Sequence record: AP019559
Source of the DNA: Escherichia phage SP15
Strand: one strand, 5' to 3'
DNA length: 64,000 nt
Of the stretch, positions 5,742 to 62,384 are shown one piece after another; within the stretch, counting starts at the first letter, position 1, and every line of letters starts with the position of its first letter. Under the pieces are notes generated by a model, which saw nothing but the letters and a program-made list of their open reading frames with translations, was not told the origin of the DNA and ran no database searches. The position numbers and the translations under genes were made by a program.

Positions 5742-7616
5742 ATGAATCGCAATGAAGAACTGAAGTATAAAGAAATGCAGGCGTTAATTAGAAACTGCAA
5801 AGAGATTATCGAAGGGTCAGCAGATGAAGAGCTGCTGTTTAATAATGCCAATAAACCCTCAGAACGTTTCCCTACACAAAGGGATATGCTTGCAGGTGAG
5901 TTGAGTAAGTATCTAATTCTAGAAGAAATGCCAATTCAGATTCGAAATGCTCATATGATTGGGGATATTCATTTCCATGATGCTGATTATGCTGCATTAG
6001 GCATGACTAACTGTTGCCTGGTAGCTCTGGAAGATATGTTGAAGAATGGTATGAAGGTTGGTAATGCTGAAATTAGCACTCCAAACTCTATCACTACTGC
6101 GGCGGCTATCACTGCTCAGATTATCACTCAAGTTAGCTCCCATCAGTATGGCGGTACTTCTGTAGATCGCCTTGATGAAGTATTAGCCCCTTATGTTCGT
6201 AAATCCTATGACAAAAATCATGCGTTTGCAAAACGTTGGACTAAGGATGAAGCCAAAGCATCCGTAATGGCTACGGAGATGACTGAAAAAGAAGTCTATG
6301 ATGCTTGTCAGGGTCTAGAGTATGAAATCAATACGATGTTCAACTCTAATGGTCAGAGTCCGTTTATTACCTTTGGCTTTGGTCTGGGAACTTCTTGGGA
6401 GGCACGTCTAGTACAGAAAGCAATACTGAAAGTACGTATGGATGGTTTAGGTATCAATAAACGTACAGCTATCTTCCCGAAACTGGTATTTGTGCTTCGT
6501 GATGGCGTAAATATGAAACCAGGAGATGTTAATTATGACATCAAGAAGTTAGCTATGAAATGTACTGCTGAACGTATGTATCCAGATTATATCAGCTATG
6601 ACAAAGTTGTAGAAGTTACTGGAGACTACAAAGTTTCTATGGGCTGCCGTTCATTCCTAGCTGCTACAGAAGATGGTGAAACTGCCGGTCGTAATAACTT
6701 AGGTGTTGTTTCTGTAAACTTGCCTAGAATTGCTATCGAAGCTGAAGGAAATATTGACCTATTCTTTGATTTGCTTGAGCTACGTGTGGATACAGCGTTA
6801 AAAGCATTGGAGTGGAGAGTTGATCGCTTAAAATACATTCAAGCTAAAGCTGCGCCCATCCTCTATATGTCAGGAGCCTTTGGACTGCGCTTGGAGCCTG
6901 ATGAATATGTATTCGATCATTTCTATAACCGTGCTTCTGTATCTCTAGGGTATATTGGTTGCCATGAAATGCTACAGTTCATGTTTGGCAAAGATGTAGA
7001 CACAATGTCCGAGACCTGCATCAAGTTTGTTCAGCGTGTATTGCAGTACATGCGGGATAGAGTAGATCAGAAGAAGGAAGAAACTAAGTTAGGTTATAGC
7101 CTGTATGCTACACCATCAGAGTCCCTGTGTGACCGTTTTTGTCGTCTAGACCGTGAATATTTCCCGGAGCATGAAGATATTCTGTCCAAAGGATACTACA
7201 CTAACTCTCACCACCTTGATGTGGAACGTAAAGTTGCTCCTAACGTCAAATTTGATTATGAGTCTAACTTTACTCCTATTGCTTCTGGTGGGTGCATCTC
7301 CTATGTAGAATTACCGGATATGAAACGATTCCCAGATGCACTGGAATGGGTTATTAATTATGCTGCTAGTAAGGTTCATTACTTCGGTATTAATACTCCA
7401 GTGGATTCTTGTGGTAAATGTGGATTCTTAGGTGAAACAATAGCATCCGAAGATGGATTTAAGTGCCCTATCTGTGGTAATCATGACCCCGAAACTCTTG
7501 AAGTAACTCGCCGAGTTTGTGGGTATCTTGGAAATCCAGGTGCTCGTCCATTTAACCCCGGCAAACAGCACGAGGTGATGGGTAGAGTTAAGCATCAGGA
7601 TATTCGAGCTAAGTAA
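5742..7616 (+). CDS. nrdD: Anaerobic ribonucleoside-triphosphate reductase (class III)
   Basis: 624 aa; C-terminal zinc ribbon CGKCGF...CPICG and glycyl-radical motif RVCGYLG. Confidence 0.85.
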   Translation: MNRNEELKYKEMQALIRNCKEIIEGSADEELLFNNANKPSERFPTQRDMLAGELSKYLILEEMPIQIRNAHMIGDIHFHDADYAALGMTNCCLVALEDMLKNGMKVGNAEISTPNSITTAAAITAQIITQVSSHQYGGTSVDRLDEVLAPYVRKSYDKNHAFAKRWTKDEAKASVMATEMTEKEVYDACQGLEYEINTMFNSNGQSPFITFGFGLGTSWEARLVQKAILKVRMDGLGINKRTAIFPKLVFVLRDGVNMKPGDVNYDIKKLAMKCTAERMYPDYISYDKVVEVTGDYKVSMGCRSFLAATEDGETAGRNNLGVVSVNLPRIAIEAEGNIDLFFDLLELRVDTALKALEWRVDRLKYIQAKAAPILYMSGAFGLRLEPDEYVFDHFYNRASVSLGYIGCHEMLQFMFGKDVDTMSETCIKFVQRVLQYMRDRVDQKKEETKLGYSLYATPSESLCDRFCRLDREYFPEHEDILSKGYYTNSHHLDVERKVAPNVKFDYESNFTPIASGGCISYVELPDMKRFPDALEWVINYAASKVHYFGINTPVDSCGKCGFLGETIASEDGFKCPICGNHDPETLEVTRRVCGYLGNPGARPFNPGKQHEVMGRVKHQDIRAK

Positions 7617-7621
7617 GATAA

Positions 7622-7660
7622 TCAGCCGGGTTGCTAGTCGACCTGGCTTTTATTTTATTT
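7622..7660 (+). terminator. Probable rho-independent terminator after nrdD
   Basis: Imperfect hairpin AGCCGG...CTGGCT followed by TTTTATTTTATTT. Confidence 0.4.
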
Positions 7661-7687
7661 GCTTTCAGCCAAAAATTTATATATAAT
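7659..7687 (+). promoter_or_regulatory. T5-type early promoter (TTGCTT, 17 nt, TATAAT) with conserved ATAAATTTGAGAGGAG leader
   Basis: Member of a reiterated promoter cassette; see findings. Confidence 0.6.
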
Positions 7688-7715
7688 AGATTTATAAATT
7701 TGAGAGGAGAAAGAT

Positions 7716-8096
7716 ATGGAATTAAAGCCCTATATAGTTGAGTCTACGTGTGGTAGTTTCCATCTGGGCGTGGATGATATTGCTGAAGCTGTCTTTGCTG
7801 CCACAGGTGATTACTCGCATATAGAGGGTGTTGCATACCCTACCATTATTGGCGATTGGGTGGGAACAAATCTAGATGTATCGCCTTATAACCCATATTG
7901 CTTGTTTGATGAAGACAGAGATGAAGTAAAATGTAATCTTGAATTTGTGTATAATAGAGTGTTAAAAGTATACCAACGTAGCCCCAATGGATACGAAGAT
8001 ATTACTTGGAGTATTAAACAGTATCTTAAAGATGTATACTCTAGTTTTTCTGACGAAGACCTAGAAACAGTTGCAGTGGAGTTTAATAATGACTAA
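7716..8096 (+). CDS. Hypothetical acidic protein
   Basis: 126-aa ORF with RBS GAGGAG downstream of promoter; no motif recognised. Confidence 0.5.
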   Translation: MELKPYIVESTCGSFHLGVDDIAEAVFAATGDYSHIEGVAYPTIIGDWVGTNLDVSPYNPYCLFDEDRDEVKCNLEFVYNRVLKVYQRSPNGYEDITWSIKQYLKDVYSSFSDEDLETVAVEFNND

Positions 8097-8295
8097 GAAT
8101 GTAAAACATCTTAAATATCGCTTAATTTATAACGGACGTATGGAAACAGAAGATCTGGCCCAGTTAGCTATTAATTCTAATGAGGTTACAGTGCGTGCGC
8201 TGGCAATTGAAAAGTTGCGTGCCTCTTATGAAAATCGTGTTATGGAACTAGAGGAGAAACTTTATGGCATTCTCGAAGCCGATGCTACCAGATAA
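8089..8295 (+). CDS. Hypothetical protein
   Basis: Small ORF whose ATG overlaps the upstream stop; coding-like composition. Confidence 0.4.
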   Translation: MTKNVKHLKYRLIYNGRMETEDLAQLAINSNEVTVRALAIEKLRASYENRVMELEEKLYGILEADATR

Positions 8296-28230: not shown

Positions 28231-28301
28231 ATATACATAAATTTGAGAGAGAAAGTTTCGGATTGATAAGAAAGTCCGAAGCAGAAAAATAAAAATTTTA
28301 G

Positions 28302-36212: not shown

Positions 36213-38384
36213 TTAAACTTTCTCCCTCATTTGATTATCCGTTAATACTCGATTCCATATTCTAAGGTTACGAATATGACCGTACAATTTTGACGGATCA
36301 GTTGGTCTTCCACCTATTTCCACTAGCGAGTCCGAGTCCGTTCCTTTCCATGTAAAACCGTGTGAGGTCCCACCTTTATTCCCATTAACAAACGATGTGA
36401 CATCCCCATTACCACTAAAAATAAAACCAAATATATGTGGAGAAAATTTATTTTCAAACGAATAACCTCTAGACAACGTAGCTGATTCATCCTCATTTAG
36501 TACATACGTGTAAGGTGTCACGGAGATTATGTCAAATTCCGCAATAAATGCTTTTCCTCCTACATTGTATTGATTATTATCAATTATCATTGGGTATATA
36601 TTATTTAATTGAAAGCTATCCCAGTTAACGCTCACTTCAGCAAGGAATGAAATATTCGTCCCCGAGAAATTATTTCTTGCAGGTATAGTAACATAATCCA
36701 GAGTCCTTGTTGCAGGCGTGCTTCCCGTAATAATGAAGGAGGATGCACAAAAGCCCTTTTCAAATTGCGGAGTACAAAATGATATTGTATCCCCAACTTG
36801 CACAGGTTGATCATTATTTCGACAATAATTTACAGATCCAATAGAACTACCTCCACGTTCTACAAATTTACACATAGCTTCAACTTTCAACCATCCGTTG
36901 TCTTCTCTATATATTCTATGTGTTATAGTCCCTCTCCCTTCTACTACAGAAGAAACTTCGCCGGTTTCGCAATTTATGAAAGATCTAGCGCCGAGAATAA
37001 GACCTCCATCCTCACCTACTAAATAAAATTGTGGGGTGATATAGATATCCAAGTTTGCCTTTACTCGTATAGATAAAGAAACGTATTCATTTTGCTGACA
37101 GTTGATTGCATTTACTGTTTCACAATAAAATAATGAAGGATACTCACCTTGTGAATTTTCGTTTGCTGTTGCGGTTGCATATGCAAAACCATACTTATCA
37201 ATATTATAAGTAACATCACTACGGTATTTATCTGTATTTAATGAAGCGGGGTCATTACTGAAAGTAATGTGATTTGTCCGCTGGCCTTCAATTAAGAGTC
37301 CTTGCTTTTCAAATCTAGGTTCATCGATATTAGCAATACAAAATTCACCATGCTTATTTATATATGTTGCGTTTGATGCACGCGAGAAACTAACAACCTT
37401 ATCAGAAGGCATTGTAATAACATCTTCACCAACTGTTATTTTCTTATAGCCTGGTGAATAACCTGCAAGCATATCAAGCGAGTCATTAAATGGAATCCAT
37501 ACGTCAGGGAATGGTTGAAGATCCGGAGCCCTGTTAGCTGCAACTTCCGCACGGTCTGCTTCTGTTTTTGCACGGTCTGCTTCTGCTTTAGAGCTGTTTG
37601 CACTACCAGCAGCATTGCTAGCTTGTTGCCCGGCCTCAATAGCACTATTACCAGCTTGTGTAGCAGAAGCAGCAGCTTGGTTTTTTAAAGCTGTTGTATC
37701 AGATACCGCGCTATCCTTAATACCTTGTGTATCCGTTTTTAATTGCTCAACATCTGCTTTTAAAGTTGTTATCTCGGATACCGAGCTATTTTTAATGGCC
37801 TGGGTATCAGATTTTAACTGTTCTACATCTGCTTTTAAAGCTGTTGTCTCTGTTACAGCACTATTTTTAATGGACTGGGTATCAGATTTTAACTGTTCGA
37901 CATCTGATTTAAGTCCTTGAATAGCAGCTACAGATTGGCTGGCAGAAGTTGCAGATCCCGCAGCATTAGTTTCACTAGCCTTAGCTTTTGTTTCCGAGGT
38001 TTTTGCATTGGTTTCAGAGATTTTTGCCGCAGATGCCGATGCAGCAGCTTGCCCAGAAAATATTTCCGCCTCATTCCTAAAACCGCTAGAATCAGCCGCT
38101 GATTGAGCTGCATTAGTCTCACTTGCCTTTGCGTTACCCTCGCTAAGTTTTGCATATTTCCGCCTCATTCCTAAAACCGCTAGAATCAGCCGCTGATTGA
38201 GCTGCATTAGTCTCACTTGCCTTTGCGTTACCCTCGCTAAGTTTTGCATCAGCCGCTGATTGAGCTGCATTAGTCTCACTTGCCTTTGCGTTACCCTCGC
38301 TAAGTTTTGCAGCAGTAGCTGATGCGTCAGCGTTAGTTTCACTAGTCTTTGCATTAGTTTCACTAGCCTTTGCGTTAGTTTCAC
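36213..38384 (-). CDS. ltf: Proximal L-shaped tail fibre protein, C-terminal fragment; real coding begins near 38154, upstream part of this ORF is out of frame
   Basis: Ala/Ser/Thr-rich coiled repeats (LKSDVEQLKSDTQ) then globular C-terminal domain. Confidence 0.6.
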   Translation of the reverse strand: MKLTQRLVKLMQRLVKLTLTHQLLLQNLARVTQRQVRLMQLNQRLMQNLARVTQRQVRLMQLNQRLILAVLGMRRKYAKLSEGNAKASETNAAQSAADSSGFRNEAEIFSGQAAASASAAKISETNAKTSETKAKASETNAAGSATSASQSVAAIQGLKSDVEQLKSDTQSIKNSAVTETTALKADVEQLKSDTQAIKNSSVSEITTLKADVEQLKTDTQGIKDSAVSDTTALKNQAAASATQAGNSAIEAGQQASNAAGSANSSKAEADRAKTEADRAEVAANRAPDLQPFPDVWIPFNDSLDMLAGYSPGYKKITVGEDVITMPSDKVVSFSRASNATYINKHGEFCIANIDEPRFEKQGLLIEGQRTNHITFSNDPASLNTDKYRSDVTYNIDKYGFAYATATANENSQGEYPSLFYCETVNAINCQQNEYVSLSIRVKANLDIYITPQFYLVGEDGGLILGARSFINCETGEVSSVVEGRGTITHRIYREDNGWLKVEAMCKFVERGGSSIGSVNYCRNNDQPVQVGDTISFCTPQFEKGFCASSFIITGSTPATRTLDYVTIPARNNFSGTNISFLAEVSVNWDSFQLNNIYPMIIDNNQYNVGGKAFIAEFDIISVTPYTYVLNEDESATLSRGYSFENKFSPHIFGFIFSGNGDVTSFVNGNKGGTSHGFTWKGTDSDSLVEIGGRPTDPSKLYGHIRNLRIWNRVLTDNQMREKV
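38061..38248. repeat. Perfect 94-bp tandem duplication (2 x 94 nt) inside the tail-fibre gene
   Basis: 38061-38154 and 38155-38248 are identical; 94 is not a multiple of 3. Confidence 0.85.
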
Positions 38385-38754
38385 TAGTTTTTGCGTTAGT
38401 CTCAGATATTTTTGCAGCCGCCGCTGATTCTGCAGATCTATCCGCGGATGCAGCAGATTGAGTAGCAGATGTAGCGGATTGAGTAGCAGAAGTTTCAGAA
38501 GCTCCAGCAGAAATAGCAGCTTCCTGTTCAGAGTTCTTAGCGTTAAGTTCCGAAGTCTTAGCAGCTATCTCAGAATCTTTTGCAGCTGCAGCAGACTTAG
38601 CTGCTGCCTCAATAGAAGATACTAACTCACTTGCAGTAATAGAACTAATAGAGTTACCAAGAGTTACTGTATATCTAGGAAATTTACTCGCAGTAGCCTT
38701 AGTATCATCAATATTTAATATCTGTTGTACAATAATTTTAGTAGTTACTGCCAT
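38143..38754 (-). CDS. ltf: Proximal L-shaped tail fibre protein, N-terminal fragment terminated by frameshift
   Basis: N-terminus [17 protein letters not shown] typical of T5 pb1-like fibre; ends in EICKT stop inside a 94-bp tandem duplication. Confidence 0.6.
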   Translation of the reverse strand: MAVTTKIIVQQILNIDDTKATASKFPRYTVTLGNSISSITASELVSSIEAAAKSAAAAKDSEIAAKTSELNAKNSEQEAAISAGASETSATQSATSATQSAASADRSAESAAAAKISETNAKTSETNAKASETNAKTSETNADASATAAKLSEGNAKASETNAAQSAADAKLSEGNAKASETNAAQSAADSSGFRNEAEICKT

Positions 38755-44086: not shown

Positions 44087-44697
44087 AAACTTTCCCGTAA
44101 ATTTAATGAGATGCCGGAGTATGTTCCGTTATTATTTAATGTAGATCCGAAAGCATCACCATTCATGAGTTTTGTTCTAAATAATATCCCATTAAATACT
44201 GGTTTTTCAGCTCCAGTAGTAGTTACAAATAAATCAGGATATACGTTAATAGACCATGAATTACCAGATCTATTAAATGATGTTATTTTATAAACTTTTG
44301 GGTGATTGGATAACTTAAATAAATCACCTGGTTTAGGAATACCGGTAAGAACACCTTTTGTATCCATAGTAATATTGGAACCTTTCTGTCCAGCAGGTAT
44401 ACTTACTAAGTTAGTATTGCCACTAACCCTAAAAGCCTCATACTGAGGTAATATAACATCAATGTAGCCTCCTGTCCTCTTATACTCTAGAATAAAGGAA
44501 TCTAGAACACTGAATTCATCAGGAAACAATTCTGGGTAAGAAATGTTTATACCCCAGTACTGAGCGGATACCTTAACTTCGTTAACTTTACCATTAGGTA
44601 ACTCATCACGAATTACTGGGTCATTATCAATCAGGTTAACACTTTCGAATCCTAAGCCTGAAAGTTCTGGATTCGTGTATGGGTCTGGTAATCTCAT
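44083..44697 (-). CDS. Distal tail protein pb9-like
   Basis: 204 aa immediately downstream of tape measure gene. Confidence 0.65.
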   Translation of the reverse strand: MRLPDPYTNPELSGLGFESVNLIDNDPVIRDELPNGKVNEVKVSAQYWGINISYPELFPDEFSVLDSFILEYKRTGGYIDVILPQYEAFRVSGNTNLVSIPAGQKGSNITMDTKGVLTGIPKPGDLFKLSNHPKVYKITSFNRSGNSWSINVYPDLFVTTTGAEKPVFNGILFRTKLMNGDAFGSTLNNNGTYSGISLNLRESL

Positions 44698-44779
44698 AGT
44701 TAATTTCTCCTCTTTAATAACAATATTATAATAGTATTAGAAAATTTTATCAAGAAATTTTTATTTTTCCATAAAGAAA

Positions 44780-44800
44780 AGGAGGACTCAAAGTCCTCCT
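44780..44800 (-). terminator. Rho-independent terminator after tape measure gene
   Basis: Hairpin GGAGGACT-CAA-AGTCCTCC, T-run on minus strand. Confidence 0.6.
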
Positions 44801-44806
44801 CCAGTT

Positions 44807-47800
44807 TTAAGAATTTCCTAATGTTTTCAGACTAGCACCGTTCTCATTCAGAGCTAGTTCTACTGCGTCTCTTAGAGCACTACTATTACTAGAGGCAAAC
44901 TCTCTAAAACTTGCAGCATCCATAGCACTAATATTCAGGATGATAGGTCTTCCTGAAGTTGAGTTAGACGAGGTTTTTAGCTCATCATTAGGTGTAGCTT
45001 TCATAGGAATCATAGGTGTAATTACTTCTGTACCATGTTCTCCCATCTGGTAGCTAACCCCGGGGTACATATTACCACCTTCGGCACGCGGCACAAATGA
45101 ATTAGCGTTACCAATACCTTGATCGCCACGAATATAAGATAGTTCACCTGCATTAGCAGACATGGACACATCAATGTTCTTCTGTCGCTCCCCTAAGGTT
45201 AAGTAACTAGTTGTATCTGCCCCAGAATCCGCAATACTTGACATACTAGATGCAGAGGATGCCTGAGCAAGAGCTAATGCACCTGCCAAACCTGCCGCTA
45301 CCATTAGAGGAATAGAGAACGGGTAAGGTACAGCTGTTGCTGCCTGCATAACTGCTACTGCAGTTTGGATGATAATCTGCTTCTTAGCTGCATCTTGTTG
45401 AATCTTCAGCTTTTCAGCTTCTAGCTTCTTCAATTTAGCTTTAGATGCTTCTGATTTACCATCACGTTTCTGCTCCGCTGCGATAGCTGCATCAATAGCA
45501 CTAACCTGTTGACTAGTACTATACTGAATCATAGAAGATACAGTTTGCATGCCAGAAGCAATCAAGGAGGTAGTATCTAGTGATCCCTGAGAGAACTGGA
45601 TCATAGCGTTAGTTAAGTTACCCATACTTTGAGCCACAGCGGTTGCTTCAGAATTTAATTCAGATAGCTTAGAGATTGCCTGATCATAAGAAGCCATTCT
45701 ATTTTGCATATCTGCAAAATCTTTGTCTTCCCCAGATAGTCCAGTTGTAGGAGTGTACACAGCACCCACAGAAGATCCTACCTGTTGCTGCATTTGGCCT
45801 TCTCTTTGCTTTCTAAGTTGCTCTAGAGCAGCAGCAGTTTTATAGATCTCATTACGATACTTGATCTCTTCTTCGGTATTGCCCTTAGATAGTTCTAGCT
45901 GTTCTTGCAAAACAGATAATCTTTCCGTAAGAATCTGAGCTTGGCCAGTAACATTTCTTTGTGTTTGGCTGACTTCTAGTGCATCCATGAGAGCTGATAC
46001 ATGTGAGGCAGTTGCCTGCTTCTCCGTTTCCCATAGTTCCCTGCTTATTTGTGCTTGAGCACGTCTAGACTGTTCCGCCTCTTTCTGTTTGTCCGCTTGT
46101 TTTGTATACCATTCGTACTTCTCTTTCTCTACAGTTAGTTCTAGTTTTAGCTGAGCTAATCTATATTGAGTAGTAGTCATAGTACGGTCATTCAGAAGAG
46201 CTATCTCACGATCTACACCAAGAATTTTATCTGTGTAATCCTTGACCTTCTTCTGAGCTTCCATACCCTGATTGGTAAGTTTAAGTTTCTCCAGCTGAAT
46301 TTTTTCAATTTCTTTCTCAACAGCTTTATTCCCCTGGTTTGTTTGAAGAACACGGCGTAAAGCAGCTTCTTGCTCTTCTAACTGTTGCAACTCTAAACGT
46401 CTACCAGCTTCCTGAGCCTTTTCCTTATCCTTAGTTTGATTGTATACATCAGCTATCTTCTGTTGAACTGCTAACTGATTTTTAGTTTCATTACCAGTTA
46501 GTTTAACATACTCAGATAGAGCCTGAGATGCAGTTTTCATTTCAGACAGGGTGTTATAACCCAGATTAAGGTTTTTAACATATTCATCAGCACTCTTACC
46601 AGTACCTAGAGATAGAGATTCTATGTTTTTTATAGCATCTGCTAAAGTAGCACTAGTTTTAGCAGCAGTATCTGTATTCTGAGCAACGTTCTGTATGTCA
46701 TTAGCTAAGTCACTAGCCGTTTTCTTAGTCTGATTGTACGCTTTCTGCTGCTCAGTTAGTCCTTTTAATACAGTAGAGTTAAAATCGTATACAGCATCAG
46801 GATCAGTAGTATCTCTCTGTAGATTAATTTGCTTCTGAAACTCTGGACTAGCCTTTGCAGCAGCGGCCCCAGCAGCTTGATACGCTGATTTCCAAGCATT
46901 GAGATTCTCTGTAGAATCCTCTACTTCCTTACCAAGTCTAGTTACTTGTAAACCCATAGCTGCAGTTTCTGCTACAAATTGCTTATTGGCCTCCGAAGCA
47001 CCTGCTGCTGCAAGACCAACAGGAATACCTTCACCAACTTGACGTATAGCTAATTTTGTATAGAAATCTGCTTGTTCCATTCGTTTATCGAACTCAGATT
47101 TTAGCTTATTACGCTTATCAAGAGATTCCTTATACATATCTAGAGCTTTATTATACCCTTCTTCAGAAGCGGCTAAACTTAAAGCAACAGCACCAACGTT
47201 GGTAGGATCTATCTGTCTATTAGTTTTTTCTTGAGCTCTAGCTGCTTCAGCAGATACAGAAGCCTGAGAAGTATAAAATACTGTGTTGATAGCATCAATT
47301 ACGGGCCCTAAGTATTTAGCAGCAGCCTGCTGAATCTTTCTCAGTGCGGCATCAGCATTAGCGGCAAATTGCTCCCACGGAGTAGCACGTAAAACTTCAT
47401 CTAAGTAGCCAAAACGTTTAGTAGACTCTGCTATAACAGCATTAGCATACGCCTGCTGTTTCTGGAAAGTAGTAAGGCTGTTAATATTATATGTTATACC
47501 TGTGTTTGCAGCATTTAACTGCTTAACGTAATCAGCATAAGCATCATTAAGACGAATAGTAACACCAAGTTCATCCAGAAGTTCGATTTCTTGTTTAGAT
47601 ACACCCTTAATTACACGGTTAAGTGCATCAGTCATATCAACGCCAAGAACAGCAGCAGCACGACGAGCTACTAAACCAAATTTATTAAGTTGTTCGGCGT
47701 CAAATCCATAAGCGGACGCTGAGGATGCTTGCCTCATAGCTTCTTCAAAAGAGATTGCATAGCCAGCTGCCTCTTGTAGTGATCTAGCAAGGGACTGAAC

Positions 47801-48487
47801 AGGAGTACCTGTCTGAGTACCTACTATAACACCAAATTTTTCTAGACGATTTAGCTGATCACCTAGTTTAAGTTGCTCGAATGCAGATTGCAAAACGAAG
47901 ATGTTGGAAGCAAGAGCTGCGTACATAATAGGTAAACTACCACCGATCTTAGCCATTGCTGCAAAATCACGAGTTGCACCGCGTGCCGAACCAGAAGTAT
48001 TACCGATAGCTCTGGAAGCTCTTCCAGCAGCACCAGTAGTATCATTAAAGCCCTTAGCTGTACCACCTAAAGCTCTATTAGTATCGTATAACCTATCTTG
48101 AACTTTCTCTGTTGCAGCTGCAACATCATTGCCCATTGTTTTAACAGATCTAGAAACTCCATCGAATCCAACTTCTAGTTTATCTGCTACTTCAATCATT
48201 GTAATAGCTAGGTCATCCAGCTTAGTCCCTATATCATTAATAGATTTAGTAATACTAAGCATGCCCCTACTAGCCTGCATTTTAGTAAGACTTTTCGCTG
48301 CTCTATCTGCTGCCCTCTCAATGGAGTATAGAGTTTTGGGCATTTTACCTAACTGTTCATTCGTTAGCTCAGAAGCCGCAGCAGCATTCTCTAATGCATC
48401 AGATACGTTTTCAATAGACTTTGCAGTACGAGTTGCCCCCTTCTGTTTAACGTCTATCAGTAATTCTCGTATTAGCTTATCAGTCAT
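44807..48487 (-). CDS. Tail tape measure protein (pb2-like)
   Basis: 1226 aa, extensive coiled coil and Ala/Gln-rich, hydrophobic segment near C-terminus. Confidence 0.85.
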   Translation of the reverse strand: MTDKLIRELLIDVKQKGATRTAKSIENVSDALENAAAASELTNEQLGKMPKTLYSIERAADRAAKSLTKMQASRGMLSITKSINDIGTKLDDLAITMIEVADKLEVGFDGVSRSVKTMGNDVAAATEKVQDRLYDTNRALGGTAKGFNDTTGAAGRASRAIGNTSGSARGATRDFAAMAKIGGSLPIMYAALASNIFVLQSAFEQLKLGDQLNRLEKFGVIVGTQTGTPVQSLARSLQEAAGYAISFEEAMRQASSASAYGFDAEQLNKFGLVARRAAAVLGVDMTDALNRVIKGVSKQEIELLDELGVTIRLNDAYADYVKQLNAANTGITYNINSLTTFQKQQAYANAVIAESTKRFGYLDEVLRATPWEQFAANADAALRKIQQAAAKYLGPVIDAINTVFYTSQASVSAEAARAQEKTNRQIDPTNVGAVALSLAASEEGYNKALDMYKESLDKRNKLKSEFDKRMEQADFYTKLAIRQVGEGIPVGLAAAGASEANKQFVAETAAMGLQVTRLGKEVEDSTENLNAWKSAYQAAGAAAAKASPEFQKQINLQRDTTDPDAVYDFNSTVLKGLTEQQKAYNQTKKTASDLANDIQNVAQNTDTAAKTSATLADAIKNIESLSLGTGKSADEYVKNLNLGYNTLSEMKTASQALSEYVKLTGNETKNQLAVQQKIADVYNQTKDKEKAQEAGRRLELQQLEEQEAALRRVLQTNQGNKAVEKEIEKIQLEKLKLTNQGMEAQKKVKDYTDKILGVDREIALLNDRTMTTTQYRLAQLKLELTVEKEKYEWYTKQADKQKEAEQSRRAQAQISRELWETEKQATASHVSALMDALEVSQTQRNVTGQAQILTERLSVLQEQLELSKGNTEEEIKYRNEIYKTAAALEQLRKQREGQMQQQVGSSVGAVYTPTTGLSGEDKDFADMQNRMASYDQAISKLSELNSEATAVAQSMGNLTNAMIQFSQGSLDTTSLIASGMQTVSSMIQYSTSQQVSAIDAAIAAEQKRDGKSEASKAKLKKLEAEKLKIQQDAAKKQIIIQTAVAVMQAATAVPYPFSIPLMVAAGLAGALALAQASSASSMSSIADSGADTTSYLTLGERQKNIDVSMSANAGELSYIRGDQGIGNANSFVPRAEGGNMYPGVSYQMGEHGTEVITPMIPMKATPNDELKTSSNSTSGRPIILNISAMDAASFREFASSNSSALRDAVELALNENGASLKTLGNS

Positions 48488-48511
48488 ATTTTATTTTTCC
48501 CAATAAAAAAA

Positions 48512-48536
48512 GGCTCTGGGCAAATCACCCAGAGCC
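48512..48536 (-). terminator. Rho-independent terminator just upstream of tape measure start
   Basis: Hairpin GGCTCTGGG-CAAATCA-CCCAGAGCC, T-run on minus strand. Confidence 0.6.
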
Positions 48537-48571
48537 AAGCCTCATCGTGGAACGCCCATTGGAGGAAACTT

Positions 48572-48940
48572 TTATCGCGCCCGAGATCTAGCATGTGGCT
48601 TAACGTTAGGTATTCTACCGTTTTGCGGCTTATGCTTCTCAGCACGTTTACGTGCAGCGTCTACAGCTTTAGCATCAAATATATTGATAATGTGTAGAAC
48701 AAATTCTTTCTCTATAGGATCGGTAATCCCATAAATATCAAATAAAACACCTAGAGCAGCTTTATCTTTGCCTATAAAGATAGGAAAGTCACCCGGTATG
48801 AAACAGTCAACTAGACTATTATAAATATTCATACTAATAGCTACAATAGGTGGAAAATCTTCAAGTTCAACAGGCATAGCCTTAGGATCAGGTTCTATAC
48901 CCATTGACTCGCAAAGTATTAGATATTGTTGTTTAGTCAT
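48572..48940 (-). CDS. Putative tail assembly chaperone, downstream ORF (no obvious RBS)
   Basis: 122-aa ORF upstream of tape measure; its frame is open back into the end of the preceding ORF. Confidence 0.45.
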   Translation of the reverse strand: MTKQQYLILCESMGIEPDPKAMPVELEDFPPIVAISMNIYNSLVDCFIPGDFPIFIGKDKAALGVLFDIYGITDPIEKEFVLHIINIFDAKAVDAARKRAEKHKPQNGRIPNVKPHARSRAR

Positions 48941-49001
48941 TTTAGACGCTGAGCTTTTAATACATTTATCAGCAAAGTCGGCAACAGCATCTAGTAGTTC
49001 T

Positions 49002-49406
49002 TTACGCTTTTGAGCTACGAAAAGTGTCTAAGTGGAACACTGTCTGGTTGATCCAAGAATCAAACGCAGCAGAGTTCTGCATGAGCATTACAGCATTATC
49101 GCGGCTAAAAGGAACTTCAGTAGCAGGATCAGCATCTGTTTCAATCAGCATCAGTTTTTCAACGTCACCTACAGTCAAACCGGTCCAACCTTTAATAGCT
49201 GCGTCAACGAAGGCTTCAATGAACTTATCATCATCCTGTACCTGAATCAAAGTACCATTAACCCATTCATCGCGTTTAGCAGAAGAAATAACACGTTTAG
49301 AGGTAGCACGAGACATATAGTTAAGTTCTAATTTAAAGTTCGGCATACCTGGGTAGGAAAGAGTAATAGTACGAGTATCAAGAGTAATATCTTTTAAATT
49401 AATCAT
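49002..49406 (-). CDS. Putative tail assembly chaperone
   Basis: Acidic 134-aa ORF with GGAG RBS, upstream of tape measure gene. Confidence 0.5.
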   Translation of the reverse strand: MINLKDITLDTRTITLSYPGMPNFKLELNYMSRATSKRVISSAKRDEWVNGTLIQVQDDDKFIEAFVDAAIKGWTGLTVGDVEKLMLIETDADPATEVPFSRDNAVMLMQNSAAFDSWINQTVFHLDTFRSSKA

Positions 49407-50301
49407 TTTTAATTTCTCCAAAGAAATCTATTCTCACTGGGTCTGAAGAAGCAGTAGGTATAATATCCCACTCAACTCTATACACATCTGAGAAATCTAG
49501 GCGTTTTGTAATACGTGCTGAAGGAAAATCTATAGAAATATTATTATTTCTTATATTTAAAGGTACATCTGTCTCCGGTTCGATATTGTAAACCATATCT
49601 CCTGCAAAACGTTTTAAGTAATATAGAGAAATGGTTGCCGAAGCATTCATTTCATTTACATAAGCTCTTTTATTATTATAAATTTTATTTATATCAAAAA
49701 CACTCTTATCCTCTCTCCAGGAGCACTGCTGTTGGAAAGATAAAGAGGCAGAAATAAGACCGGGTAAGATGCTGCCATTAGTAGAAGCTATTACTGGGCT
49801 GTAAGACATTACTTCACCCTGTATAATAGAAGCTGCTTCTCTATAGGTAGATACTTCTGAGAATTTCCCAGACTCAATACCAACATTAAGAATTGGTATG
49901 TTCTTATCTAAAGAAAAATCTACCGTAGATACATAACAGTTTTCAAAATATACACAGTTATTATCTTTATTTACTATATAGATATTGAACATAATAGGTT
50001 CAATATTACTACTATATAGTGGGAGTAAGAAAGTATTACCTTTTCTATCAAAACCTAACCATTCAAAGAAGTTAGCCTCTGTAAGAGTATTACTGAAATT
50101 TATTGCTAGAGAGATAGAAGAGGGGGTTTGAGCATTTATAATAGAGTCTGCATAGTTAGTTCTACGATGAACAGTCCTACGAAGAGTCTTGAATTCCTCG
50201 TAGGAAGTCTGTATATCATAGTTTGATAGGGCATCAAAATGAAATGCCCTACCATCATACTCAACTATAACTTTTGACTCTCGCATTAGAGAGTAGTACA
50301 T
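49399..50301 (-). CDS. Minor tail protein (T5 p140-like)
   Basis: 300 aa directly downstream of tail tube gene. Confidence 0.5.
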   Translation of the reverse strand: MYYSLMRESKVIVEYDGRAFHFDALSNYDIQTSYEEFKTLRRTVHRRTNYADSIINAQTPSSISLAINFSNTLTEANFFEWLGFDRKGNTFLLPLYSSNIEPIMFNIYIVNKDNNCVYFENCYVSTVDFSLDKNIPILNVGIESGKFSEVSTYREAASIIQGEVMSYSPVIASTNGSILPGLISASLSFQQQCSWREDKSVFDINKIYNNKRAYVNEMNASATISLYYLKRFAGDMVYNIEPETDVPLNIRNNNISIDFPSARITKRLDFSDVYRVEWDIIPTASSDPVRIDFFGEIKND

Positions 50302-50305
50302 TTAT

Positions 50306-51712
50306 TTAACCACCAGCACTAACTGTGATAGTTTTAGTACCTTCTACACCAGAACCATCTTTAGCTACAGCCTTCACAGTAACTGCACCAGTTTTAGAGG
50401 CATCAGCTGTTAATAACCCAGATTCTGCATCAATTGTAGCTGCGTTACCACTAGAAATAGACCAAGTTACAGCCTTATTAGTAGCTTCTGAAGGTGTTAC
50501 CTCAACAGACATCTGTAAAGTATTACTATTTGTTACAGAAACAGCCTCACCTGCCGACTTAACTGTAATGGATTTAACGGGAACTGGAGGAGTTTTAGCA
50601 CCATCCCCCGTAGCAATCAGATTAGCCACAGTAGTTTTTGTATACTTGTTAGAAAATCCAAGATAACCTTCGTCACCAGTATCCAAATCAGTAGGAATAG
50701 CTTTAAACTCTACTGAAGTACCAAGTACATCATCAGTCTCAATAGTAGGGATATTAACATGCGCCTGTTTAGCAACTAACACAGCTGCCGGACGTTCCTC
50801 GTCATATTCTCCACCCAAAATAAGTGCGATTTCAAAACGGTTAACTACCTTAAGGGTTTTAATCAGATCTTTGTACAGTTCCATAGAACCAAGAGACTTA
50901 TCATTAAGGTAAGCTGTCAAAGAACCCGTTAACTCAAACGCACCCGTAAATGAGCCGATTGGAATATTTACACGTGACATAATATTCGGGGTTAGGTACG
51001 TGATGTTGTTATTAATGGTAAAAGTACCACCAGTAATAGGAATATCATATGCCTTATCAGAATCCATATCCTTAATTTTTAGGATAGTTAACTTGTTCTT
51101 AATGTAAGAACTCTGAATAGTCATATAAGTTTCATCATCAATACCTAATGCATCAGGGTCAAATGGTTGGCTATCTAACGGAATGAGCTGATTACCGTTA
51201 CCAGACCAAGTTACACGACCAATATCTTCAATATCAACGTTAACTTCTGCCTGGTTGATCTGGCAAGAGTCAATGTAACTCCACGCATTGTCAGTTAGAA
51301 TGTAAATATGCAGCATAGCCAGTTCGTGATATGCGTTATCTTTGAAGTTAACCATGAAGTTAGTAGCATTATTATGTGCTCCAGTATCTCCATCAAGGTT
51401 AATAGCTTTACCACTAGAAAGTGCATGCCATAACATATAGTCAGGAACAATTTGTTTGCTAGTAGTTTTATCCATGTATGGCAGGATATAGGTGGAGAAG
51501 CTCCACTCAGCTGCATTCAAGGAATCGTTAAAACGTTTAGAACCACGAGTAGGACGCGGACCAGCTTCGTTAACAGTAATATCTGTTGAGTTACTGTCCT
51601 GACCCCAAGAAATATCATCCTGAACTAGAATCTCTTGCGTGTTGGTCTTATCGTGACCAGTCTTAACCGTAGACACGAAGATTCGAGTATTACGTAATAG
51701 TTGTAAAGACAT
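50306..51712 (-). CDS. Major tail tube protein (pb6-like) with C-terminal Ig-like domain
   Basis: 468 aa; C-terminal Big_2-like segment VTVKSAGEAVSVTNSNTLQMSVEVTPSEATNKAVTWS. Confidence 0.8.
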   Translation of the reverse strand: MSLQLLRNTRIFVSTVKTGHDKTNTQEILVQDDISWGQDSNSTDITVNEAGPRPTRGSKRFNDSLNAAEWSFSTYILPYMDKTTSKQIVPDYMLWHALSSGKAINLDGDTGAHNNATNFMVNFKDNAYHELAMLHIYILTDNAWSYIDSCQINQAEVNVDIEDIGRVTWSGNGNQLIPLDSQPFDPDALGIDDETYMTIQSSYIKNKLTILKIKDMDSDKAYDIPITGGTFTINNNITYLTPNIMSRVNIPIGSFTGAFELTGSLTAYLNDKSLGSMELYKDLIKTLKVVNRFEIALILGGEYDEERPAAVLVAKQAHVNIPTIETDDVLGTSVEFKAIPTDLDTGDEGYLGFSNKYTKTTVANLIATGDGAKTPPVPVKSITVKSAGEAVSVTNSNTLQMSVEVTPSEATNKAVTWSISSGNAATIDAESGLLTADASKTGAVTVKAVAKDGSGVEGTKTITVSAGG

Positions 51713-51738
51713 TTAATTATTTTCTCCTAATCTGTAAC

Positions 51739-52224
51739 TTATCTGCGAAGTGACCTACGTGGAGGCTGATACCTCACTGTTACATTTATTTCTGCTAAAC
51801 CATATGGGGCCAGTAGACCCTCATCTGTACTAACTGATGTAATGCTCATATCAGTCGCCTCACATGGGAAGGTCGATCCATTAGGTTTACTAACAGTATA
51901 TTCTAAATTTCCACCTGTGTCAATAACGGTTTTTATATCCGCTACGAGTTTTTCAAGTTGCTCTTGAATGTCTGTTTTCTCTTTATCATACACCAGGATA
52001 GGAAGTTCTAAAAACATCCACTGTTGACCTGAGGGAAGATACTGCCCAGTTTCAGTTCCGATATGAACTGCAACATAAGGAAACTCTCGTATCTCCTCAA
52101 ACTTATAAGTTTGACGTGAGACGTTTCCATACAAGTTATTAAAATATTCATCTGGTTGAGAGCCATCCATTTGTTTGGCTATTCGATCAACCAGAGCTTG
52201 TGCTATACTTGTTCTGTGATCCAT
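51739..52224 (-). CDS. Tail terminator protein (p142-like)
   Basis: 161 aa, synteny. Confidence 0.5.
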   Translation of the reverse strand: MDHRTSIAQALVDRIAKQMDGSQPDEYFNNLYGNVSRQTYKFEEIREFPYVAVHIGTETGQYLPSGQQWMFLELPILVYDKEKTDIQEQLEKLVADIKTVIDTGGNLEYTVSKPNGSTFPCEATDMSITSVSTDEGLLAPYGLAEINVTVRYQPPRRSLRR

Positions 52225-52227
52225 TTA

Positions 52228-52995
52228 TTAGGTTCCTTGATTAACCTTAATTTTGTATCTGGAGTGAATTAAGTCTCTTGCAGCTTTAGCTATCGCCTCT
52301 CCAATTAATCTTTGAGGGTTTCTAGCACCTGGGTAGGGTCGTAATGACAATCTTCGATATGTGGATACTGCAGGATTAAATACTGAATATGGACGTACCA
52401 TATAATTATATGTAACATTTAATTCAGGAGCACCTTTGCTAGTTCCAACATCTCTAAGCATAACATCTTTAACTTTTAGAGAATTTGCAAAACGACCTGT
52501 TCTAAATTTAAGTGGAGCTCCTGCTTTTTTCATATCCTTTATTAAGTATTCTTTAGCAACCAACTCCAGAATAACCTTCATATTGCTATTTGATACAAAA
52601 CGTCCTGAAGCACCTGTTACTGCACCAGAATATCCATCTTCTACGTCTCTAGGATCCCCAAAGTTTACTTGAACTCTACCAGTAGAACGTTTTTTACCTA
52701 CAGAGGATTTTTTACCAGTGGTTGCTTGTATTAAATTCTCTAAAGCACCTAAGTCTCCTGTTAGATCTAAGCTAGAAGAAACTGCTTTTAGAATAGAAGC
52801 GGTCCTAACATTAAGGAGATCTTGGGATACAGGTTTTGAGAACTTAAAAGATACCTGAGCAACAGTACCGTCCCTAGTAGGATCTTTTAATCCTGTTTCA
52901 ACAGAGTATACAACAGTATTCTTATTGTTCTCGGAACGTCCGACAGTATCTAGTTGCTCCTTAATAATTTGTGTAGCTAAATCAGAAAGAGACAT
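52228..52995 (-). CDS. Tail completion protein (p143-like)
   Basis: 255 aa, synteny. Confidence 0.5.
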   Translation of the reverse strand: MSLSDLATQIIKEQLDTVGRSENNKNTVVYSVETGLKDPTRDGTVAQVSFKFSKPVSQDLLNVRTASILKAVSSSLDLTGDLGALENLIQATTGKKSSVGKKRSTGRVQVNFGDPRDVEDGYSGAVTGASGRFVSNSNMKVILELVAKEYLIKDMKKAGAPLKFRTGRFANSLKVKDVMLRDVGTSKGAPELNVTYNYMVRPYSVFNPAVSTYRRLSLRPYPGARNPQRLIGEAIAKAARDLIHSRYKIKVNQGT

Positions 52996-53507
52996 TATAC
53001 TCTCCTGTAAACTTCAATAATAGTACGAATATGCTCTGGAATACCAGACTTAGTATTATTAAAAGTAACTGTTTCTCCACCAATTGTTTTAGCTTGACGG
53101 TAATCCTGTTTATGCCAATGATCTACTAGCATACATGCTGCAAGTTTGAGATCCTCAGGTATTGGATTAAATCCACCTTGTGTGTACTCTACATCCATAT
53201 AACCTTCCGGAGGATTAAATTTAAGAAGTATAACCCCATCAGAGTACAACTTATACTGTTCGGGATCTATCTCCTTATCATTAATAGTCATTTTGGTTAC
53301 TGAAGTAGCCGAGGGAGAACTTAAGAAGTATTTTTTACGAGTAGGTTTTGTATTGATTAACTGGTCTACCGCATCAGCATCATCCATACCTAAAAGGCTA
53401 GTAATCAGCGCATTGGCAGCAGTAATCATCATCTCTACTCCAGATTCTAGTTCAGGTCGTTTTAACCCGCCGTATAATCTATAGTCTTCAGCTGTGATTA
53501 TTTGCAT
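52995..53507 (-). CDS. Head completion / head-tail connector protein (p144-like)
   Basis: 170 aa, synteny downstream of major capsid gene. Confidence 0.5.
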   Translation of the reverse strand: MQIITAEDYRLYGGLKRPELESGVEMMITAANALITSLLGMDDADAVDQLINTKPTRKKYFLSSPSATSVTKMTINDKEIDPEQYKLYSDGVILLKFNPPEGYMDVEYTQGGFNPIPEDLKLAACMLVDHWHKQDYRQAKTIGGETVTFNNTKSGIPEHIRTIIEVYRRV

Positions 53508-53526
53508 TTATTTTTCCCAATAAAAA

Positions 53527-53546
53527 AGGAGAGCCGAAGCTCTCCT
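53527..53546 (-). terminator. Rho-independent terminator after major capsid gene
   Basis: Hairpin AGGAGAGC-CGAA-GCTCTCCT, T-run on minus strand. Confidence 0.7.
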
Positions 53547-53566
53547 TATCGGCTGAAAAGCCTGTA

Positions 53567-54943
53567 TTAAGCGGTAGCGTAAGCACCGGATACAACACCA
53601 TTACTAAAGTAACGTTGCAGGTTAACACGCTGAGTAACGTAGTATGCATCACGCTGTTTACCAGCTTGGCGCTCACGTTCAACAGTAACAGCACGCTGGC
53701 GTGGCATCACGAAGTTATCTTTATAAACAATAACTGCGAACTCTTTCTCAGCTGCTTTAGCTGGGAAGTACTCAGAAACTACAACCGGCAGACCGTAAAT
53801 ACGACCAACCTGACCTTGCAGTTTAACAGCATCGTTGCCAACCTGTGCAACATCCTGCCATTCTTCATCTTCCAGCAGATCGTAGTAAGCATCCATAGAT
53901 ACGATCAGTACCAGTTTGCTCAATTTCAGACCATGACGGCCAAGTTTACGACGCAGTTTAGAAATAGTTTTAGCAGTTACCAAAACAGTACCATCAGCTT
54001 TAGCTTCAGTAGTAACTTTAGCACCATCTTCACTAGCAAGAGTCAACAGACCTTTCGGCTGACCAGTACCATTACCAGTCATAAACGCTTCTTCGATAGA
54101 AACGGCATGTGCTTCGATCAGACGCTTACGCAGCAGAGGCAGCAGGGAGAAGATTGCATCTTCTTCAGTTTCATCAGTGATGAAGGACTTAGCAGCCAGC
54201 TTGTAAGTTTTGAAACTAATCTCAGTCAGAGTACCTTTAACTTCGTCACCAACAGTTTCGTCAGTACCGAATTTGGAAGCATCTACCCAAGTAGCTTTTC
54301 CAGCTTCTGGTTCAACCAGCATAGTAAGAATTTTGCTGGACATTGGCAGTTCATCGAACAGTGCGCCAACTACTAATTCTTTCTGCAGGTCACGGATAAT
54401 ACGAGTGGAGAAGATAGTTTCATATGCTTCGCTAGACATAGAAACGGAAGAAGAACCATTAACAGCCTTAACGTGGGCTTTACCATGTTCAGTTTCAAAT
54501 ACATCCTTCTCCATCATATAAGACAGAAGAACCAGTTTTTCAACTTCATCTTCAAAAGCTTCCTGAGTACCATACAGTGCTTTAGCTACACTATCACCAA
54601 CGAAGGAACGGCCTTCACGAGCTGCTAGCAGAGATTTAATTTCATCCTGAAGACCAACAATAGTTTCCTGTTGTTTTTCTACAGTTTGTGCAAATAGTTC
54701 TGCGCTCTTCTTAGATTTCTCATCCAGGGACTTAACCAGATCCAGAGCCTCTTCCAGACGCTTACGGTCTTCACCAACAGCTTTAGAAACCAGGTCATTC
54801 ATACGAGCCAGTTCTTTTTCTTCCTGCTCTTTACGCATACGTTCAGCTTCCTGAGCTTTCTGAGCAGCGGTCAGACCTTCCAGAGATTTAGCCAGATCAC
54901 CCAGACCAAGTTCTTCTTTCAGCTTATTAATATCAATAGTCAT
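53567..54943 (-). CDS. Major capsid protein precursor (pb8-like, HK97 fold with N-terminal scaffold domain)
   Basis: 458 aa; N-terminal coiled-coil delta domain; host-optimal codon usage. Confidence 0.85.
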   Translation of the reverse strand: MTIDINKLKEELGLGDLAKSLEGLTAAQKAQEAERMRKEQEEKELARMNDLVSKAVGEDRKRLEEALDLVKSLDEKSKKSAELFAQTVEKQQETIVGLQDEIKSLLAAREGRSFVGDSVAKALYGTQEAFEDEVEKLVLLSYMMEKDVFETEHGKAHVKAVNGSSSVSMSSEAYETIFSTRIIRDLQKELVVGALFDELPMSSKILTMLVEPEAGKATWVDASKFGTDETVGDEVKGTLTEISFKTYKLAAKSFITDETEEDAIFSLLPLLRKRLIEAHAVSIEEAFMTGNGTGQPKGLLTLASEDGAKVTTEAKADGTVLVTAKTISKLRRKLGRHGLKLSKLVLIVSMDAYYDLLEDEEWQDVAQVGNDAVKLQGQVGRIYGLPVVVSEYFPAKAAEKEFAVIVYKDNFVMPRQRAVTVERERQAGKQRDAYYVTQRVNLQRYFSNGVVSGAYATA

Positions 54944-54960
54944 TTTTAAATAATTCTCCG

Positions 54961-55593
54961 TTATTCTTTAACGTAGCCTAAAGCTATCGCAAGTTTTTCT
55001 AGTTCAGAAAGATTACGTTCTTGAGCTGGGACAGCTTTAGAACTTATTGCAGTAAAAGATTTACGCCATTCAGTATAATCATAACCATTCATGCTCTTAG
55101 CGAGATTGAACGTTGAGTCCTGATTACAAGGTACAGAAACTACCGAAACTTCGTATAGTTCTAAATCTTTAATAATAAATATATCAGTAGCTTCATCCCA
55201 CTCTGCATCTAGGCAGCGGAATCCGATACTAAAAGTTTTCAGTACACCGTTTTTAATTAGTGAAAAGATAGCCGGGTCAGAACTTTCATAGATCTCGCAT
55301 TCTATTTCGAGACCCATTTCAGTAGGGTTAAGATCAATACACTTACCGATTGGACGACGATGATCGTGTCCGAAAAGAATAATCGGGTTTTTCATATAGT
55401 TAGCAAGTGCATTAGATGTTTTCCACGCAGAAGCAGGAATTACATCACCAGCGCGATCTTTACTAATTGTATTAGCGAATCCACGGATTTTTACAACACC
55501 TTCTTTGGATTCGCTATCAATAGATTTAATATAAGCATCTAAATGAACGGGTGCTGATTTTAACTTGTTATAGTCAATAGCAGCTTGTGTCAT
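54961..55593 (-). CDS. Prohead protease (pb11-like)
   Basis: 210 aa between decoration and capsid genes. Confidence 0.65.
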   Translation of the reverse strand: MTQAAIDYNKLKSAPVHLDAYIKSIDSESKEGVVKIRGFANTISKDRAGDVIPASAWKTSNALANYMKNPIILFGHDHRRPIGKCIDLNPTEMGLEIECEIYESSDPAIFSLIKNGVLKTFSIGFRCLDAEWDEATDIFIIKDLELYEVSVVSVPCNQDSTFNLAKSMNGYDYTEWRKSFTAISSKAVPAQERNLSELEKLAIALGYVKE

Positions 55594-62305: not shown

Positions 62306-62324
62306 AAGTTCTCCAAAAATTTAG

Positions 62325-62353
62325 TTGCTTATACTGCCATAATTCTGTATAAT
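62325..62353 (+). promoter_or_regulatory. T5-type early promoter (TTGCTT, 17 nt, TATAAT) driving llp
   Basis: Consensus hexamers 30 nt upstream of llp RBS AGAGGAG. Confidence 0.6.
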
Positions 62354-62384
62354 AGTATTATAAATTAAATAGAGGAGAATGTAA

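Follow-up and report, generated by a model that had tools for sequence, protein, structure and literature searches.

Two late-gene junctions of a T5-like phage probably join a terminator tail to a weak ribosome-binding site

At two places in the late region of Escherichia phage SP15 (record AP019559) a hairpin is followed by a near-identical short sequence and then directly by the start codon of a structural gene. What does this shared sequence do? The first-pass annotation had offered a late promoter, or a re-initiation or translation element specific to late genes, and had pointed to a related third copy. The window, that is, the whole stretch of 64,000 nucleotides analyzed here, comes from a T5-like phage (Tequintavirus) with its late structural genes on the minus strand; positions 47000-55000 are 97.5% identical to Escherichia phage vB_EcoS_FFH_1, and several hundred T5-like phages match as well. 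Gene identities were taken over from homologues in the annotated T5 genome (AY543070). The late order begins with pb5, the terminase, the portal, the protease, the major capsid protein and a 170-aa head completion/adaptor gene; it continues with the tail completion genes, the tail tube pb6, a minor tail protein and two tape-measure chaperones, and it ends with the tape measure protein pb2, the distal tail protein, pb3 and pb4. The tape measure gene has no promoter of its own.

The hairpins, both copies of the motif and both gene starts lie where the first-pass annotation had placed them. At site A, hairpin A is followed by TTTTTTTATTGGGAAAAATAAAAT and then by the tape measure ATG at 48487. At site B, hairpin B (AA-GGAGAGC-UUCG-GCUCUCC-UU, a stem of 7-9 bp closed by a UUCG loop, with its core at 53545-53528) is followed by TTTTTTATTGGGAAAAATAA and, at 53507, by the ATG that opens the 170-aa gene. 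The two sites are identical over a stretch of at most 21 nt, TTTTTTATTGGGAAAAATAAA. A third hairpin, C, lies behind the tape measure gene. Hairpins A, B and C begin 4-35 nt past a stop codon (stops at 48572, 53567 and 44807, respectively), and all three have the layout of an intrinsic terminator, a stable GC-rich hairpin with a U run; at A and B, which lie 19-38 nt behind a stop codon on the coding strand, the run after the hairpin consists of at least six T and then ATT. The T5 record labels all three hairpins as putative rho-independent terminators. Coordinates are collected in Table 1.

Table 1. Window positions of the features at the two junctions and around them, with the sequences of relatives at the GGGA position.
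Feature	Position	Strand	Details
Operon promoter	62385-62357		
Major capsid gene	54943-53567	minus	stop codon 53569-53567
Terminator hairpin B, (AA)GGAGAGCTTCGGCTCTCC(TT)	53547-53526	minus	-14.6 kcal/mol; after major capsid stop codon
U-tract of terminator B, TTTTTTATT (U6AUU)	53519-53527	minus	first half of the motif of the first-pass annotation
Putative head completion gene initiation region	53508-53518	minus	GGGA 53518-53515; A-rich spacer AAAATAA 53514-53508
170-aa head completion/adaptor gene	53507-52995	minus	ATG 53507-53505
Late promoter P-J5	51923-51895		boosts tube and chaperone genes
Second tape-measure chaperone gene, 122 aa	48940-48572	minus	stop codon 48574-48572
Non-coding box UUUCCUCCAAUGGGCGUUCCACGAUGAGG (UUUCCUCCA...GUUCCACG)	48540-48568	minus	between chaperone stop and hairpin A
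Terminator hairpin A, GGCTCTGGGTGATTTGCCCAGAGCC	48536-48512	minus	-20.3 kcal/mol, 10-bp stem; between 122-aa chaperone gene and tape measure gene
U-tract of terminator A, TTTTTTTATT (U7AUU)	48502-48511	minus	
Putative tape measure initiation region	48488-48501	minus	GGGA 48501-48498; spacer AAAATAAAAT 48497-48488
Tape measure gene pb2, 1226 aa	48487-44807	minus	ATG 48487-48485, stop 44809-44807
Terminator hairpin C	44778-44802	minus	-15.5 kcal/mol, then UUUUCUUU; after tape measure stop
A-rich block GGAAAAATAAAAA, the 'related' copy of the first-pass annotation	44758-44770	minus	just upstream of P-G25 -35 hexamer
P-G25 core TTGATA-17-TATAAT	44725-44753	minus	11/12 matches
Relative L026, site B	after U-tract		ATTAGAGGTATATAATG; AGAGG at GGGA position
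Relative L028, site B	after U-tract		ATTTGGAGTAAATATG; TGGAG at GGGA position
Relative L028, site A	after U-tract		ATTTGAGGTAATAAAATG; TGAGG at GGGA position
Vibrio phages	after U-tract		AAGGAG or AGGAGG

A search of the window did not find copies of the motif at a similar frequency inside coding regions, so the motif is genuine and not a product of chance. Searched for with as many as three mismatches, the 18-mer TTTATTGGGAAAAATAAA gave three matches where 0.18 were expected, a number reached in none of 100 shuffles; the third of these matches (48778, three mismatches) lies in coding DNA and is a chance match. The exact string GGAAAAATAAA occurs three times in the window, at 53517, 48500 and 44770, each time on the late strand, intergenic and directly behind a terminator. 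It is absent from the plus strand and from the coding DNA of the window, as well as from the first 48 kb of T5.

Comparison across relatives separates the motif into two halves. The sample comprised about 30 Tequintavirus loci. Beyond these it covered representatives of Epseptimavirus, Sugarlandvirus, Novosibvirus and Priunavirus, along with two Vibrio phages and the divergent IMG/VR relatives L026 and L028; the junction is conserved across several Demerecviridae genera. Hairpin A has covaried: five of its ten stem pairs have changed on both sides across genera with 97% of cells paired, a result reached by none of 500 shuffles. The 18-nt core of hairpin B is invariant in seven lineages and is therefore uninformative on compensatory changes. 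Together with the TTTTTTATT tail, the hairpins are the most conserved part of the neighbourhood across genera. Intergenic regions are mostly better conserved than the flanking coding DNA, and at site B 18 of the 20 columns are invariant, which is above the capsid gene. The tail TTTTTTATT is near-invariant in the enterobacterial Demerecviridae genera sampled, with one T-to-C change in L028; the length of its T-run does change, being 6, 7 or 13 within Tequintavirus, and at site A most relatives have 6 T while the window has 7.

The G/A-rich half of the motif varies more across genera than the U-tract half. Within Tequintavirus its G part reads GGG, GG or TTAGG and its A-run has 4 to 6 residues; among relatives the spacer measures 7-10 nt, with TAAATG, TAAAACATG and TAAAATATG as variants before the tape measure gene. 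These length changes in T-run, A-run and spacer exclude coding across the junction and argue against a site of fixed geometry. Two minus-strand +1-frame ORFs, 48484-48645 and 53488-53694, run from the upstream gene across hairpin and motif, the former ending in an ATGA that overlaps the tape measure start; as candidates for coding through the hairpins both were rejected, since the polymorphism in T-run and spacer length breaks them.

At the position of GGGA the divergent relatives and the Vibrio phages carry a canonical Shine-Dalgarno sequence (Table 1), which puts GGGA in the Shine-Dalgarno place. It stands 7 nt from the ATG at site B and 10 nt from it at site A. The first-pass annotation had seen no classic Shine-Dalgarno at either gene, and this was right in part: GGGA does pair with the 3' end of 16S rRNA, at -4.2 kcal/mol, a weak value compared with -5 to -11.6 kcal/mol for most late genes. 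The pb3 gene is preceded by GGGAAAG in the same usage (-4.3 kcal/mol). At site A of T5 a 250-aa ORF, T5.141, is inserted right behind the U-tract and separates it from pb2, which is nevertheless still preceded by GGAAAACATTAG-ATG (GGAAAAC...ATG). We infer from these observations that GGGA works as the Shine-Dalgarno of both genes. The proposal of a translation element thus holds in its ordinary sense, a G-run being present where other genera have GAGG, GGAG or AGGAG. Literal re-initiation by ribosomes arriving from the upstream gene is, by contrast, unlikely, given a distance of 59-84 nt from the upstream stop codon and a stable hairpin in that interval. In the minimum free energy folds of site A, GGGAA is paired with upstream sequence, so the site may not simply be open.

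Several other structures were considered and set aside. GGGAAAA as a frameshift slippery site would lie outside any conserved ORF. An AU mini-hairpin, UUUAUU/AAUAAA with GGGA in its loop, has folding energies of only -1.5 and -2.4 kcal/mol and is not significant, being equalled by 12-18 of 200 shuffles. At site B, single-sequence minimum free energy folds show GCCGAUA paired with UAUUGG in an extended helix, which is missing from the consensus fold. The covariance models of Rfam 15 gave no match between 43000 and 55000 with E up to 1.

We therefore consider it likely that in the 21-mer a terminator U-tract passes without a gap into a weak ribosome-binding site, that of the late gene which follows. 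Its initial 9-10 nt, UUUUUU(U)AUU, would be the U-tract of an intrinsic terminator inside the late operon; the 11-14 nt after them, made up of GGGA and an A-rich spacer, would serve translation initiation of the directly adjoining gene. The majority of late transcripts would stop at the hairpin and yield abundant, 3'-protected mRNA for the major capsid protein (B) or for the tail tube and chaperones (A). On the fraction that reads through, a 30S subunit would bind an unstructured U/A-rich stretch with its weak Shine-Dalgarno, and translation of this fraction would supply the low-copy head completion and tape measure proteins. Terminator B would be set behind the most abundant virion protein and ahead of low-copy connector proteins, and terminator A behind the P-J5-boosted tube and chaperone genes and ahead of the tape measure gene; terminator C would close the tape measure transcript, after which P-G25 would restart transcription. 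Terminators A and B thus probably act as attenuators, keeping capsid far above head completion protein, and tube and chaperones far above tape measure protein. We infer both the termination efficiency and the read-through at these sites; literature searches turned up no maps of transcript starts or RNA 3' ends for T5-like phages. That A and B look alike would follow from the same constraints being stacked within about 20 nt, namely a U-tract, a G-rich Shine-Dalgarno and an AU-rich spacer, and the form of the junction would have been retained since the common ancestor of the enterobacterial Demerecviridae.

Known systems offer parallels for each part. In phage T7, T-phi is an attenuating intrinsic terminator inside an operon, placed behind the highly expressed structural gene 10 for the capsid. 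As at site B, a GC-rich hairpin and a U-tract come right after the major capsid gene and the lower-copy genes are left to read-through; the same logic also fits the hairpin before the tape measure gene. The junctions described here differ from T-phi in that the ribosome-binding site of the next gene starts within the terminator tail, and in that two junctions of one genome have 21 nt in common. The initiation region of T4 gene 32 (...AAAGGAAAUAAAAAUG) is AU-rich with a short Shine-Dalgarno of the GGA type. It shares with our sites a GGA/GGGA core, an A-rich spacer and U/A-rich surroundings that would suit S1-assisted binding of the 30S subunit, and the Vibrio-phage orthologue of the junction reads AAAGGAAAUAAAAUG; unlike gene 32, no operator, pseudoknot or autoregulatory protein is known here. 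In the tR2-type tail of phage lambda a hairpin is followed by UUUUUAUUUGG and then by a Shine-Dalgarno; this U-tract too has a single A interruption, with G residues at its end. The consensus for elemental pausing is also matched by a U-to-G step where the transcript is released; such a step may favour a pause there and is a possible contributor to the strict sequence. The elements are of known kinds and the finding is an ordinary one, with the unusually strict and recurrent sequence as its modest remaining point.

The compact arrangement is widespread. Hairpin GGAGAGCTTCGGCTCTCC was found in more than 120 unrelated viral contigs, some of jumbo-phage size (IMG/VR loci L076-L195). A T-run comes after it in most cases, and in many of the contigs a T-run, a Shine-Dalgarno and an ATG follow within about 20 nt; the terminator-ribosome-binding-site junction is thus a common phage arrangement. 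The hairpin itself, GGAGAGC-UUCG-GCUCUCC, appears from this distribution to be a generic terminator used convergently. Some T5-like genomes (L086, L138) carry a second copy of hairpin B elsewhere.

The strictness of the sequence is what leaves room for other explanations. A weak Shine-Dalgarno with its spacer would be expected to drift freely, yet the 20 nt behind hairpin B are identical in T5, Epseptimavirus and the Priunavirus PSTCR5, while the downstream protein is only about 30% identical. Moreover, an exact-match scan found nearly the same 26-nt string, including ATGAC, in an unrelated siphophage of 42.6 kb, where the hairpin AAGCCGC-TTTTA-AGCGGCTT is followed by TTTTTTATTGGGAAAAATAA-ATGAC and a tape measure gene. 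That tape measure protein belongs to phrog_9483 (E = 9e-104) and has no significant similarity to pb2. A relative whose tape measure protein is 49% identical to it has a different hairpin, followed by TTTTTTATTGGGCAAAAAAATG. We found no cultured relative of the motif-bearing siphophage in the phage collection. Identity across genera and recurrence in an unrelated phage together indicate that a constraint beyond that of 'any weak Shine-Dalgarno' seems to act, and this suggests either stacked constraints that leave few good solutions or else horizontal spread of a small cassette.

In the lineage of this siphophage (L247 5544-6003, also L218 and L235; L248 1278-1650) an antisense ORF of about 100 aa, zinc-ribbon-like, lies between the tail chaperone genes and the tape measure gene; after this insert come a terminator hairpin and the junction TTTTTTATTGGG(A/C)AAAAA...ATG. 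The relatives L249 and L250 have neither the antisense insert nor the junction.

Could the post-terminator sequence be a specific cis-regulatory RNA element instead of a plain ribosome-binding site? One version makes it the operator of a phage or host factor. Another has it pair over a long range, as the Shine-Dalgarno strand, with the UUUCCUCC or GUUCC boxes upstream of hairpin A, with the consequence that tape measure translation would depend on ribosomes finishing the chaperone gene, or on read-through of the terminator. Several observations speak for such an element: identity across genera exceeds that of the flanking genes, the motif is found again before an unrelated tape measure gene, and a pyrimidine-rich box begins 1-13 nt past the chaperone stop in every lineage, the Vibrio phages included. 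Sugarlandvirus, Novosibvirus and Priunavirus all retain the box of site A, UUUCCUCCAAUGGGCGUUCCACGAUGAGG, which contains an anti-Shine-Dalgarno-like CCUCC, and the Vibrio phages retain the first part of it (UUUUCUCCA); an IMG/VR scan with the conserved box gave no genera beyond those already sampled. Both RNAalifold and the minimum free energy folds pair the pyrimidine or the GUUCC box with GGAAA. In the RNAalifold solution the UUUCC of the box pairs with the downstream GGAAA in 94% of cells; the changes in this helix, however, are all one-sided, and in 2-18% of trials a shuffled box pairs with GGAAA equally well. A box of this kind is absent from site B, whose consensus fold is the hairpin alone, and the polymorphic length of the T- and A-runs does not suit a binding site of fixed geometry. 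Also against the element are the replacement of the motif by an ordinary Shine-Dalgarno in L026 and L028 and the absence of an Rfam match. On this balance we regard a specific cis-regulatory element as unlikely.

The same evidence bears on a more ambitious proposal, in which UUUUUUAUUGGGAAAAAUAA-AUG would be a dedicated module, convergent or horizontally spread, that links terminator read-through to the translation of low-copy structural genes. It could do so, notably for the tape measure protein, through sequestration of the Shine-Dalgarno by the conserved upstream boxes or through a trans-acting factor. Such a module would account for the identity across genera with only about 30% identical proteins and for the recurrence before an unrelated siphophage tape measure gene; we nonetheless think it improbable. 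Translational coupling by long-range sequestration of the Shine-Dalgarno, as in MS2 (coat-replicase) and rpmI-rplT, offers a parallel, since at site A a pyrimidine box within the ribosome footprint of the upstream stop complements the downstream Shine-Dalgarno region. Here, by contrast, there are 5-6 weak pairs, no compensatory changes and nothing at site B.

Less still can be said for a copied or mobile regulatory cassette, a reading we consider quite improbable. The identity of the sites would then stem from duplication, gene conversion or horizontal transfer of a module made of terminator tail and ribosome-binding site, possibly helped by homing-endonuclease traffic at the junctions, and the exact sequence need not be under selection. 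ORFs with T5orf172/CapR domains are indeed inserted exactly at the junctions, T5.141 at site A and inserts of about 700 nt at site B in L010, L019 and L021; in the unrelated siphophage the motif accompanies an antisense insert that L249 and L250 lack; and cassettes of promoter and leader are widely reused in T5-like genomes. Hairpins A and B, however, are not homologous, the tail alone being common to them, and the two sites drift independently within the genomes L009, L010, L019, L021 and L026. Both sites, moreover, keep the motif between genera with about 30% protein identity, which implies selection and not recent copying.

The inserts at the junctions deserve a description of their own. 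Their ORFs have CapR-homology, treble-clef zinc-finger and T5orf172 domains (L001 23781-24530, which is T5.141; L010 7578-8150; L019 7546-8145; L021 about 7490-8200), and they are likely to be homing-endonuclease-like mobile genes. In L010, L019 and L021, all IMG/VR relatives, the insert lies between the capsid stop codon and terminator B. In Vibrio Demerecviridae an extra ORF of about 245 aa, without a Pfam match, stands between the chaperone and tape measure genes (L073 10131-10980; L075 14677-15528); it and the tape measure gene each have their own terminator hairpin and Shine-Dalgarno upstream.

A late-gene promoter or polymerase recognition element at A and B, as the first-pass annotation had envisaged, is highly improbable, since neither site has a -35/-10 pair, the ATG comes too close and T5 has its late promoters elsewhere. 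The resemblance that invites this reading is confined to the A-rich part of the motif, which looks like the A block that T5 promoters have ahead of their -35 and matches the block of late promoter P-G25 at 12 consecutive nt. Aligned with P-G25 over 34 nt, site A is 74% identical and places CTGATA opposite the -35 hexamer TTGATA, but a -10 element at the right distance is absent behind this CTGATA. A consensus scan for sigma-70-like -35/-10 pairs, with hexamers 16-18 nt apart and at least 9 of 12 matches, found none at A or B; the best candidates picked manually have 7 of 12 and lack A2 or T6. The candidate of site B, TGCAAA-17-TATAGA (7/12), was rejected, as it falls within codons and is not conserved in other genera; any such downstream 'core' sits in coding DNA that other genera do not conserve. 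The ATG follows the motif by 0-3 nt at both sites, so that a transcript begun by the motif would be without its start codon. Neither site contains the T4-type late element TATAAATA. The T5 record puts late promoters elsewhere, at P-G25, P-J5 and upstream of oad, and these are ordinary sigma-70 promoters (PMC7472727). [quoted passage not shown] Compared with T5 sigma-70 promoters, then, the A block is present at A and B while a -35/-10 core is missing, and a start codon comes immediately afterwards.

The third site is of a different kind. A sequence related to the motif, CTTTATGGAAAAATAAAAA, does follow hairpin C (44802-44778) as the first-pass annotation had described, but it is the A-rich block of P-G25, a late promoter known from experiment: GGAAAAATAAAAA falls inside the feature 'promoter P-G 25' of the T5 record, directly after the third terminator. 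Behind the P-G25 core come a strong Shine-Dalgarno, GAGGAG, and an ATG at 44697, and transcripts from P-G25 are seen late in infection (PMC7472727). When all annotated T5 promoters were compared, an AAAAAtt block was present at the same position in early and late promoters generally; P31B, for instance, carries AGAAAAATAAAAATTT there. The A-rich block at 44770-44758, upstream of the -35, thus resembles the P-G25, P31B and early promoter family, and because the block is common to early and late promoters, the late-gene specificity proposed for the third site does not hold. Although GGAAAAATAAA is present at all three sites, it is meaningful as a promoter A block only at C, where a core follows.

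If the junctions are indeed a terminator tail joined to a weak ribosome-binding site, the gain is mostly tidy annotation. On this reading, two attenuating terminators fused to weak ribosome-binding sites would be the means by which T5-like phages balance capsid, tube and chaperones against head completion and tape measure proteins. One spurious candidate would also drop out of the search for what switches T5 transcription from early to late, a step still without an explanation. It would also provide a compact natural part of 40-45 nt, terminator plus weak ribosome-binding site, conserved over the whole phage family. The strict retention, and the recurrence ahead of a tape measure gene with no relation to pb2, would be of consequence only should the coupling or regulatory reading prove correct.

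Other repeats were seen in the window. Positions 37683-38603 hold families of tandem and dispersed direct repeats with spacings of 75, 94, 21 and 63 nt and copies up to 100% identical, probably inside the homologue of the gene for the L-shaped tail fibre of T5. On the plus strand, 7654-28348 and 62320-62372 contain repeated early-promoter/leader cassettes (TTGCT..., TATAAT, ATAAATT-GAGAG) that match annotated T5 early promoters; the A block of P31B corresponds to the copy at 28283-28293 (AGAAAAATAAA).
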